Below, in pieces: positions 17,062-54,587 of a stretch of 64,000 nt of DNA (position 1 is its first letter; every line of letters begins with the position of its first letter). The stretch spans positions 24,725-88,724 of the forward strand of contig CALRWX020000001.1 of assembly GCA_943371975.1 (NCBI GenBank), written 5' to 3'. The notes under the pieces were generated by a model. The model did no database searches. It was not told where the DNA came from and was given only the letters and a program-made list of their open reading frames with translations. The translations under genes were made by a program, and so were the position numbers. The DNA comes from Pseudanabaena sp. UWO311. Lineage in GTDB: Bacteria; Cyanobacteriota; Cyanobacteriia; Pseudanabaenales; Pseudanabaenaceae.

Positions 17062-17745
17062 ATGCGAATCTTATTGGTGGATGATGAGGAAGAACTGGCA
17101 GAACCTTTGCAAAGGGTTTTGACAAATCAGGGCTATGTCGTGGATAGCGCCAGTAGTGGCGATCGCGGATGGGAGTTGGCTCAGGTTGGCGAATACGATC
17201 TGTTGATTTTAGACTGGATGATGCCAGAGAAATCAGGGATTGAGATTTGTCGGAATTTGCGCGAAAAAGGCGATAGTACCCCTGTTCTGATACTTACCGC
17301 CAAAGATACGCTCGACGATCGCGTGACAGGTTTAGATAGCGGAGCCGATGACTATCTGGTTAAACCCTTTGAATTGCGAGAATTATTAGCTAGAGTCAGA
17401 GCTTTATTGCGCCGCGCCCCAACTGCGATCGCTGTAACCGTTGAAACTTCTCGGTTGAGCTATGGAGATTTAGAACTTGATCGCGAAAATCAATTGGTCT
17501 ATCGTGATCAAGTAGCGATCGCTTTAACAGAAAGAGAATATCAACTTTTAGAATATTTCCTACTCCATCCCAATCAGTTATTGAGTCATGAGCAGATTTC
17601 ACAACATATATGGAAAGAAGGTGAAGATTTGCCCACTAGTAATGCTTTGGCTGCCCAAATAAAATTATTACGTCGTAAAATAGATCGCGATCGGCAGATC
17701 TCTCTAATCAATACGGTATATGGTAAGGGATATCGTTTTGGTTAA
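17062..17745 (+). CDS. OmpR-family two-component response regulator (orphan; no kinase is adjacent)
   Basis: Receiver domain (MRILLVDDEEE ... LILDWMMP ... LTAKD ... KPF) plus a winged-helix C-terminus (TVYGKGYRF). Confidence 0.9.
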   Translation: MRILLVDDEEELAEPLQRVLTNQGYVVDSASSGDRGWELAQVGEYDLLILDWMMPEKSGIEICRNLREKGDSTPVLILTAKDTLDDRVTGLDSGADDYLVKPFELRELLARVRALLRRAPTAIAVTVETSRLSYGDLELDRENQLVYRDQVAIALTEREYQLLEYFLLHPNQLLSHEQISQHIWKEGEDLPTSNALAAQIKLLRRKIDRDRQISLINTVYGKGYRFG

Positions 17746-17759
17746 AAATTTGTATAAAA

Positions 17760-17820
17760 ATCCCCGACTTCTTTTGTGGAATTGAAAGGTATTTTTGGTA
17801 GAAGAGAAGAAGTCGGGGAT
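17760..17820. repeat. dispersed hairpin with ATCCCCGACTT / AAGTCGGGGAT stems
   Basis: atccccgacttctt (17760-17773) pairs with aagaagtcggggat (17807-17820). The same stem motif occurs inside the MITE at 43390-43451. Confidence 0.8.
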
Positions 17821-42884: not shown

Positions 42885-43140
42885 AACTATCACCATTGAA
42901 GGAATATCTAGAGAACTTGATTTAGGATTATTTTCCTATGTGTATTTTGTATATATTTTAATACTTATAATTGTTAAGGATCGCTGATTTTAAAATCCTG
43001 CAACAATTATTTGAATTTCGACACAGGTTTCAATGTATAAATTTCATTTTTACTGATGTGGAAAAAAGTCGAAAAGAAACCTGAATTTGAACAAAAATCG
43101 AAGACTGAACTACAATTAGTAAAAATGAGTCAAAATCAAA

Positions 43141-43550
43141 GTGTCAGAACAACCTGATAAATTTCCTTACGAAATTTCAGTTCATGCTAAAGAACGCATT
43201 GAGGAAAGAAATATATTGCTAACATGGATACAGGAAACGATAGAAAAACCTGATAAAACAGAACCACATCAAACTGATCCAGAGCTAGAAATAGCATTCA
43301 AAAAATTTGAAAGCTTTAGTGGGCGTGTTTTAAAGATTGTCTACAACAAAAATGTAAGTAGGTCAGCAAAAGAAACCTGTAAATGCCTAGATCCCCGACT
43401 TTTTCTAGGCAAGCAAAGACAATTTGCAAATTCACAAAAAAAGTCGGGGATCTTAATCTTTGCTTCTTAAGTTTTCTTATGCCTAGCTACTTATCTCCAA
43501 TAAGAATTGTTACGGCACATTTTGATCGGAGTATGAAGGGAAAACTATGA
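43141..43550 (+). pseudogene. DUF4258-family toxin-like gene interrupted by a 135-bp MITE
   Basis: The N-terminal part ...EISVHAKERIEERNI...RVLKIVYNKNV (to 43356) and the C-terminal part SPIRIVTAHFDRSMKGKL* (43494-43550) are in different frames. Removing the element plus one TA joins them in frame. Confidence 0.75.
43357..43491. mobile_element. MITE (135 bp) with imperfect terminal inverted repeats and TA target-site duplication
   Basis: TA|agtaggtcagcaaaagaaac ... gttttcttatgcctagctact|TA. It has an internal gatccccgac/gtcggggatc hairpin. Confidence 0.75.
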
Positions 43551-43939
43551 ATATTCAATATGATCAACAAGTTGATGCCGCTTATTTAACTCTAGAGACA
43601 GCAAAGATTGTTGACTCAGAAGAAATACAGCCTAACGTGGTATTTGATTATGATGAGTCAGATCTCGTTGTTGGCATTGAGTTGTTAAGTGTAAAACGAA
43701 ATATTCCTAACTTATTGCAGCTTCTAAAACTTATCCCTACAGGACAGGTAGGTAAAGTAGGCTTTGATTTTCCAGTGTTTCTCGATTTTTTGATTAAGTC
43801 AGTGGATTTAAGCTTGATTGACAAAAAAACAAGGCAAAGGATAGGCATGACAAAAAAATTACTAGAAAATTCATCGAGTATTTTGCGATCAACTCAAGAA
43901 TCCCTAGAGGCTTCTAATCCAAGATTTACGAGAATCTAA
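43547..43939 (+). CDS. DUF2283-domain protein (antitoxin-like partner of DUF4258) with a ~60-aa C-terminal extension
   Basis: MNIQYDQQVDAAYLTLE...DYDESDLVVGIELLS is the DUF2283 pattern. The ATGA start/stop overlap with the upstream gene is typical of TA coupling. Confidence 0.7.
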   Translation: MNIQYDQQVDAAYLTLETAKIVDSEEIQPNVVFDYDESDLVVGIELLSVKRNIPNLLQLLKLIPTGQVGKVGFDFPVFLDFLIKSVDLSLIDKKTRQRIGMTKKLLENSSSILRSTQESLEASNPRFTRI

Positions 43940-54488: not shown

Positions 54489-54587
54489 AGTGCTTGTGCA
54501 AAATAAATTACCAAAACCCGTAAAGTTGCGCCCCAAAGGGGCGCAACTTTACGGGTTTTGGTTTGTAATTAATTATGCCTAACTACT
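54489..54587. mobile_element. MITE (99 bp), same family as 43357-43491, flanked by TA
   Basis: TA|agtgcttgtgcaaaataaattacc ... ggtttgtaattaattatgcctaactact|TA. The internal perfect hairpin is accaaaacccgtaaagttgcgcccc aaa ggggcgcaactttacgggttttggt. Confidence 0.7.

Follow-up and report, generated by a model that had tools for sequence, protein, structure and literature searches.

What has happened to a predicted toxin gene whose open reading frame (ORF) is cut short, and whose last codons lie a short distance downstream in a different frame? The question is raised by a DUF4258 gene and its DUF2283 neighbor in a 64,000-nucleotide stretch of DNA from Pseudanabaena sp. UWO311 (hereafter the window, meaning the whole stretch that was analyzed). 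The window has 42.5% G+C and 83 copies of GCGATCGC, a host signature that is cyanobacterial, and the relatives of its sequences lead to the Pseudanabaenaceae. An original prediction, made from the letters and ORFs of the window, held that a MITE had inactivated the toxin half of a putative toxin-antitoxin (TA) pair. The prediction proved right in almost all particulars. Our results make it highly probable that a MITE inserted at a TA dinucleotide in the DUF4258 gene and duplicated it, leaving a product that is almost certainly inactive and sparing the DUF2283 gene.

In the proposed course of events, a 135-bp non-autonomous element entered at a TA dinucleotide within codons 72-73, and the target was duplicated upon insertion; the reaction would have been cut-and-paste, performed in trans by a TA-targeting DDE transposase. 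The shifted reading frame now specifies 72 native and 37 element-encoded residues. Such a product is without the last β-strand and residues P74, F82, D83, and R84 of a RelE/ParE-like (BECR) fold, and is almost certainly inactive. The DUF2283 gene, normally coupled to the toxin gene through an ATGA overlap, remains untouched and under purifying selection, and what is left is a dead toxin gene followed by an orphan that resembles an antitoxin gene.

As it stands, the DUF4258 gene is divided between two frames of the forward strand. The 5ˊ part (43141-43356) has a GTG start, comprises codons 1-72, and is recognized both by Pfam (PF14076) and by alignment to intact homologues. In the ORF list, the frame that begins there continues to 43470 and, as had been noticed, finishes with 37 residues read from the element, which gives a 109-aa chimera with 72 toxin residues. 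The same ORF occurs in close relatives, and it is annotated as a gene in public data. Reconstruction locates the 3ˊ part, codons 73-90 plus the stop codon, at 43494-43550 on the same strand, exactly where it had been predicted. It reads SPIRIVTAHFDRSMKGKL in a frame that differs from that of the 5ˊ part, and an ATGA overlap joins its end to the DUF2283 ORF at 43547-43939. The ORF list also includes a putative 55-aa ORF (43383-43550, forward strand) whose ATG lies within the MITE and which extends through the final toxin codons, with its ATGA overlap to the DUF2283 gene intact; it may have a role such as preserving translational coupling. Upstream of both genes, a consensus scan identified a sigma-70-like site (TTGAAC, 18 nt, TACAAT; 43087-43116, forward strand; 9 of 12 matches), which is a candidate only for the promoter of the two-gene operon because the count of such sites in the region is not above that in shuffled sequences.

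Removal of the element together with one TA (137 nt) restores the frame as claimed and produces a 273-nt ORF of 90 aa, the length of 91 aa given originally being a trivial miscount. The residues ...YNKNV are thereby joined to SPIRIVTAHFDR..., and this region aligns without gaps to intact relatives. Among the 19 close homologues found, those that are intact have 90-95 aa, share 62-89% identity, and read ...VYNK(T/N)VSPIRIVTAHFDRSMKGKL at the corresponding position, so that the rebuilt junction between V and SP falls in the same register with zero gaps and zero extra residues. When compared with the DUF4258 profile (Pfam gathering cut-off 25 bits), the rebuilt protein scores 44 bits over positions 1-69 of 71 and is above the cut-off, versus 34 bits over positions 1-61 for the broken 109-aa ORF, in which positions 62-71 are gone. 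A complete DUF4258 domain carrying P74, F82, D83, and R84 is absent from the present gene and appears only after in-silico excision. The rebuilt length is normal for the family, which comprises 730 members in a profile search, nearly all of those listed having 83-92 aa. The agreement is far above chance. The junction is in register with intact homologues, and the empty site is seen in related loci. PADLOC and NCBIfam produced zero matches for the DUF4258 or DUF2283 protein, as did PDB sequence searches for either family.

The empty site was found in three syntenic loci. At the filled site, the sequence is G-TA-(135 bp)-TA-TC, compared with G-TA-TC at the empty site. Specifically, AAAAATG-TA-(135 bp)-TA-TCTCCA is found both in the window and in L001, an independent scaffold from a metagenome, and locus L002, whose protein is 89% identical, reads AAAACTG-TA-TCCCCT with a single TA and without the element. 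Two loci from a Pseudanabaenaceae MAG (L030 and L031; 79% identity) likewise have a single TA and encode an intact 90-aa DUF4258 protein, within the order ABC permease, small ORF, DUF4258, DUF2283, and transketolase. The left copy of the duplicated target in the window is at 43355-43356, where the empty sites have their single TA, and the right copy is at 43492-43493, as established by the reconstruction, by the comparison of filled and empty sites, and by the TA flanks of other copies of the element. The filled site recurs in independent assemblies. Insertion with a 2-bp TA target duplication is therefore directly demonstrated. Had the 135 bp been conserved coding sequence, relatives would carry it as such; instead, close relatives carry the same insertion and the same premature stop. 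Wherever the empty allele was seen, the lineage was a different one at species level (protein identity 79-89%), and the sampled close relatives are all filled.

The insertion cuts off part of the predicted fold. An AlphaFold model of the DUF4258 protein based on a 106-sequence alignment (pLDDT 87.6) has two helices (residues 14-22 and 27-35) and four strands (39-42, 49-56, 62-69, and 76-83). A first model based on a 20-sequence alignment had been too poor to use (pLDDT 53.5). The best fold matches in the PDB all belong to the RelE/ParE superfamily (HigB2, HP0894, ParE2, a Salmonella toxin, BrnT, and RelE), with TM-scores of 0.5-0.6 and weak E-values of 0.04-0.2. Residues H15, R23, W29, L64, and P74 are invariant in the family, and those that are nearly invariant include F82, D83, and R84. 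Interruption after residue 72 eliminates the last β-strand (76-83) along with P74, F82, D83, and R84. Because this strand and these residues are removed, the product, a predicted toxin, is very likely inactivated, which supports the original prediction on its central point. DUF4258 has been classified as a predicted BECR-fold TA toxin with its target given as 'Unknown' in Table 1 of one survey (PMC11980606), and a preprint from 2026 (10.64898/2026.08.28.747851) places it together with colicin-like/Ntox49 domains. In a survey of E. coli, the partners of DUF4258 are strictly downstream (PMC10790755).

The downstream gene has been left whole, as the original prediction stated. The DUF2283 gene (43547-43939, forward strand) encodes 130 aa, of which residues 3-49 match DUF2283 (PF10049) with a Pfam score of 60 bits, well above the gathering cut-off of 23. 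Its ORF is identical in all carriers of the insertion. Across lineages, omega is 0.17-0.26 for the gene overall, with values of 0.08-0.16 in the N-terminal domain and 0.23-0.32 in residues 51-130, and the gene is under purifying selection. The C-terminal extension noted originally is real and conserved, and it comprises 80 aa (residues 51-130). Proteins of this long form (125-131 aa) are confined to the clade, and more distant DUF2283/YuzE proteins have 75-91 aa and align to the N-terminal half only. Based on these alignments, the extension is clade-wide and unrelated to the MITE. Searches of PDB, PADLOC, and NCBIfam returned no match for the extension.

In every intact locus, the two genes are small, adjacent, and co-oriented, with a tight toxin-then-antitoxin order and a 4-nt ATGA overlap. 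This overlap survives in the window, where the toxin frame is broken upstream of it, and the insertion may influence expression of the DUF2283 gene. Family membership, fold, and gene arrangement together predict that DUF4258 acts as the toxin and DUF2283 as the antitoxin; the intact DUF4258 protein would be toxic, and the DUF2283 protein would neutralize it. Damage to the upstream gene has also occurred elsewhere. In L003, a locus of the Synechococcus PCC 7502 type, the same toxin gene is broken by a 1-nt deletion that causes a frameshift, and the partner is intact. In L032/L033, it is broken by an insertion that includes an ISKra4-like transposase fragment (NCBIfam E = 5e-6), at which the contigs end. 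Three independent losses of the upstream gene are thus on record, and the window, L001, and L003 have all kept the downstream gene. A TA pair would be expected to show this asymmetry, in which the first gene is lost repeatedly and the second survives.

These observations bear on a reading that accepts the insertion but denies that the two genes form a TA module, and that would instead make them a small nuclease or an RNA-binding protein with its regulator. We consider this unlikely, yet it is the most serious of the alternatives. Our literature search found no experimental test of standalone DUF4258 or of DUF2283 as an antitoxin, and the lack of PADLOC and NCBIfam matches and the conserved 80-aa extension of the partner are in keeping with some other role. 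Furthermore, the DUF2283 domain, which is similar to the anti-activator QseM, has been described in FseA, a transcriptional activator of an ICE (PMC4755241). Against this stand the RelE/ParE-like fold of the toxin model, the invariable gene order with its 4-nt overlap in all intact loci, and the asymmetry expected of a TA pair in the three independent losses.

We now turn to the inserted DNA itself. The MITE occupies 135 bp (43357-43491), as predicted, with TA on both sides, and it is recognized by its inverted repeats, its RNA fold, and its multiple copies. Its outer arms lie at approximately 43357-43392 and 43456-43491. The terminal inverted repeats are indeed imperfect: complementarity is 71% between the 38-nt arms (TA included), and the 25 terminal bases agree at 17 positions. 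Inside the arms, perfect 16-bp stems (43389-43404 and 43438-43453) enclose a 33-nt loop to form a core hairpin, a feature that was absent from the original prediction. When folded as RNA, the element has a free energy of -46.4 kcal/mol (z = -6.9). It is small and non-coding, with zero ORFs wholly inside, and simple consensus scans revealed no promoter- or terminator-like sites within it. Zero Rfam families reach threshold anywhere in the window, and a weak match of the MITE to a miRNA-like hairpin in Rfam (E = 0.03) was dismissed as noise.

The core hairpin also occurs by itself. A stand-alone core without the outer arms is located at 17760-17820 of the window, 15 nt past the stop codon of the ORF at 17062-17745, and another armless core is present at L006. 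In some copies of the MITE the loop of the core is inverted. The termini, in turn, are conserved among the copies and among sister families whose cores differ.

A search for further copies and their TA duplications had been proposed originally, and a pattern scan of species-representative genomes uncovered 22 matches, all of them in Pseudanabaena genomes. Three additional matches beyond those in the genome scan were obtained by using blastn against plasmids. One is a full-length copy with TA on both flanks in an intergenic spacer of plasmid ABRG53c from Pseudanabaena sp. ABRG5-3; the others are a left-half copy on P. galeata pPg_02 and a core-only copy. The flanks of the dispersed copies are unrelated. 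After orthologous loci were collapsed, nine independent loci carry a copy of exactly 135 bp flanked by TA on both sides, and at other loci the copy is shortened or one flank is mutated. Beyond the left end of the element, TA is present at 16 of 21 independent loci (P ~1e-15), and beyond the right end at 11 of 13 (P ~6e-12), given a background TA frequency of 6.5%. No target motif wider than TA is visible in the tabulated flanks. A P. minima copy shares 98.5% identity with the MITE in the window, and those in several other species share 94-98%. Orthologous genes of the hosts that carry it have dS values of 0.2-0.5, and the comparison with MITE identities of 94-98.5% across species argues for recent activity or spread of the family.

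Some of these features could suggest a different mode of transposition, in which a hairpin-based REPIN/PATE-like element is moved as single-stranded DNA by a Y1 transposase (IS200/IS605 or RAYT) and in which the TAs on either side do not represent a duplication but are part of the element or of its target motif. The perfect core hairpin, its occurrence without arms at two sites, the inverted loops, which suggest hairpin-driven DNA dynamics, and the failure to find a DDE parent in the DNA searched would all be compatible with this proposal. At the DUF4258 locus, however, the whole 135-bp unit including its arms is present or absent, with one TA in empty sites and two in filled sites. In addition, the inverted repeats at the ends are conserved over families with different cores. 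TA is palindromic, such that a duplication cannot be separated by sequence from an element that carries one TA, but Y1 elements lack terminal inverted repeats. The PATE/REPIN type associated with IS200/IS605 is characterized by the absence of both inverted termini and target duplication and by a fixed tetra- or pentanucleotide, whereas this element has the former two features and shows no conserved tetra- or pentanucleotide 5ˊ of its copies beyond TA. We therefore regard transposition by a Y1 enzyme as very improbable and favor cut-and-paste insertion with duplication of the TA.

The MITE belongs to a wider set of TA-flanked elements that have the termini AGTAGCTAGGCAT... in common and differ in their hairpin cores. 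A second element of this kind, 99 bp in length, is present in the window at 54489-54587 between convergent ORFs, and it combines related termini with a different, perfect 25-bp hairpin core. More such elements are found on P. galeata pPg_02 (for example, L035 39665-39781). A metagenome scan with the consensus terminus AGTAGYTAGGCATAATTAA yielded 73 termini, 64 of which (88%) have TA outside (P ~1e-59), and for 30 of the 73 a partner end is present 93-112 bp away.

An autonomous element with matching ends was not found in approximately 270 kb of Pseudanabaena loci, 100 kb of the P. galeata plasmid, and 446 kb of metagenome loci. Likewise, a blastn search of all plasmids with the left terminus and a search of the loci for distant right ends did not recover a parent insertion sequence. 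Two long terminus pairs, in L091 (2,153 bp) and L078 (1,464 bp), were rejected as parents because they enclose host genes and no transposase. The transposases annotated in 100 kb of pPg_02 belong to the Tn3 and IS4 families and have unrelated ends, and the annotation of this plasmid includes no IS630-family gene over its first 100 kb. Since the TA duplication is strict and terminal inverted repeats are present, we infer from what is established for IS630/Tc1-mariner transposases that an enzyme of this type is the prime candidate for mobilization. The IS427 group of IS5 likewise makes 2-bp TA duplications and may instead have supplied the transposase.

How the interrupted allele has fared can be assessed from its relatives. 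At least 25 contigs carry it, as four haplotypes (ancestral, Q4K, W29R, and both); a single metagenome series supplied most of them, and JGI and NCBI some others. Over 15-20 kb, each of these contigs shares at least 99.9% identity with the window, and the MITE does not vary among them. The insertion is present in all five full-length variants from close relatives. The closest intact allele found is 89% identical, and a search of the metagenome collection for the exact empty junction (...AAAAATGTATCTCC...) was negative. The insertion looks fixed in the lineage of the window. Given that no empty allele from the same species was found, the insertion at this locus is not demonstrably recent. The toxin remnant (273 nt) contains two of the approximately 18 variable sites in 20 kb, versus 0.24 expected (P ~0.02), and one of the two changes replaces the invariant W29. 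This is mild evidence that the remnant may be under relaxed constraint. An earlier impression that both SNPs between the window and L001 in 6.3 kb fell within the toxin remnant was weakened to this mild enrichment when flanks of 15-20 kb from four more contigs were included.

We give very little credence to the idea that the gene is not dead, with the chimera partly active or precise excision restoring the toxin in part of a population as a reversible switch, for although the remnant in the window is otherwise undamaged and retains every ancestral residue, removal of the element plus one TA repairs the frame exactly, and MITE-ORF fusions are known in Anabaena (PMC3184786), the chimera has lost the final strand of the sheet as well as four residues that are invariant or nearly so, a family-invariant position is polymorphic among carriers, and the collection searched yielded filled sites in place of the empty junction. 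Inactivation of the DUF4258 gene by the MITE is by far the more probable reading.

Similar elements are known in other bacteria. Like the MITE described here, the Correia elements of Neisseria, the RUP elements of Streptococcus pneumoniae, and ERIC-type elements are approximately 100-160 bp in length, non-coding, bounded by terminal inverted repeats with TA at both ends, dispersed in many copies, and stable when folded as RNA. Correia elements are not known to have a parent transposase, and none is evident here, and a link between RUP and an IS630-type transposase has been proposed. The resemblance is one of description only, and these elements are from other phyla; the MITE here differs in its termini, AGTAGCTAGGCAT..., and in its perfect 16-bp hairpin module, which also occurs alone and in both orientations. 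Disruption of an ABC-transporter gene by an RUP insertion has been documented (PMC3184786). Also comparable are Nezha of Anabaena/Nostoc, MaeMITE of Microcystis, and the mcy-inactivating MITEs of Anabaena, which are likewise cyanobacterial and have inverted terminal repeats, direct repeats, and stable structure. Cyanobacterial MITEs of 130-170 bp are on record, with mobility established from filled and empty orthologous sites and with natural gene inactivation that includes mcy (PMC3184786, PMC10969869). Again compared by description only, Nezha has a matching insertion sequence (ISNpu3), whereas the MITE here has none in the DNA searched, and it was seen only in Pseudanabaena, unlike Nezha and MaeMITE with their respective hosts.

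The DUF4258 protein also conforms to what has been described for predicted toxins of its family, including a length of approximately 90 aa, the conserved positions from H15, R23, and W29 through FDR, a two-helix, four-strand fold, and a small gene just downstream. Its partner is a long DUF2283 protein, whereas the partners encountered in our literature search are HicB in Synechocystis and, for fused DUF4258 proteins, MqsA. Here the toxin gene precedes its partner, in contrast with the antitoxin-then-toxin order listed for DUF4258 in the table of Gerdes 2025.

TA-flanked MITEs, cyanobacterial MITEs, and gene inactivation by MITEs are already known, and the finding is ordinary in kind and well documented; it reveals no new mechanism. 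What seems to be new is the MITE family itself and its modular architecture, and our literature search found no link between Pseudanabaena and MITEs. A bolder interpretation, which we offer tentatively and think somewhat doubtful as a whole, is that the 135-bp element belongs to an undescribed, Pseudanabaena-wide superfamily of orphan TA-flanked MITEs. Its members would share about 15 nt of common termini (AGTAGCTAGGCAT...) and exchange perfect-hairpin cores, one of which is free-standing and orientation-flipping, and their parent transposase would be unrecognizable, as with Correia. Separately, under the same interpretation, the destruction of the toxin gene in three ways while the long DUF2283 partner is kept under selection could mean that the latter is an orphan antitoxin or a regulator with a role of its own.

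The locus is an exemplary natural case of how a MITE can disarm a putative toxin and spare its partner, with the filled and empty sites, the duplicated target, and the exact repair in silico all available. To what is recorded for the bloom-forming genus Pseudanabaena, it contributes a MITE family and a broader TA-flanked set, both apparently undescribed. Genome annotation can benefit, since public data list the 109-aa ORF as a gene, and the insertion is a possible strain marker. Finally, the dead toxin gene and its preserved neighbor constitute a small natural experiment on whether DUF4258 and DUF2283 truly pair as toxin and antitoxin.

The DUF4258 gene, a predicted toxin gene interrupted in the window by a 135-bp TA-flanked MITE (43357-43491), has also been broken separately from this insertion in other lineages. 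In the locus of the Synechococcus PCC 7502 type (L003, 3001-3192), the frame is disrupted by a 1-nt deletion, and the DUF2283 partner is intact at 131 aa. In two metagenome contigs (L032 and L033, 3001-3812), the gene is interrupted after about residue 56 by an insertion coding for an ISKra4-like transposase fragment, and both contigs stop there.

Two nonsynonymous polymorphisms, Q4K and W29R (window positions 43150 and 43225), are present in the toxin remnant when the window is compared with L001, an independent metagenome scaffold, and the close-relative contigs L108-L111, all of them insertion carriers with an identity of at least 99.9%. The second change affects a family-invariant tryptophan. 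All four possible combinations of the two variants occur among these carriers, so recombination or recurrent mutation has taken place. Compared with the surrounding 20 kb, the remnant is mildly enriched in polymorphism (P about 0.02).

The DUF4258 ORF of the window begins with GTG. An upstream ATG (ATGAGTCAAAAT..., 43126-43143) matches the site where the 95-aa homologues (MSQI...) start. Here, and likewise in 90-aa relatives such as the empty-site relative L002, this ATG is not in the reading frame of the gene. Downstream, an ATG within the MITE opens a 55-aa ORF (43383-43550) in the frame of the toxin C-terminus. Because this ORF closes at the native ATGA where the DUF2283 gene starts, the partner could in principle still be translationally coupled to it.

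The MITE copies differ in the 33-nt loop between their perfect 16-bp stems. Relative to the outer arms, this loop is inverted in L012 (1628-1762), L025 (4177-4311), and L015. When its orientation is switched in silico, the match to the copy in the window improves from 78% to 92% identity for L012 and from 81% to 96% for L025. The copies in L023 and L027 carry an entirely different loop. A second MITE-like element of 99 bp, also TA-flanked, lies between convergent ORFs (window 54489-54587). It has termini related to the ends of the 135-bp MITE but a different core, a perfect 25-bp hairpin (ACCAAAACCCGTAAAGTTGCGCCCC / GGGGCGCAACTTTACGGGTTTTGGT). A metagenome scan for the terminus common to both elements matched 73 termini, 88% with TA outside, and most belong to ~103-bp elements. 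The core hairpin of the 135-bp MITE (stems ATCCCCGACTT / AAGTCGGGGAT) is additionally found without outer arms at two sites, one beginning 15 nt past the stop of ORF 17062-17745 (window 17760-17820) and the other in L006 (1503-1562). This hairpin may be a small repeat or module in its own right that the MITE has as cargo.
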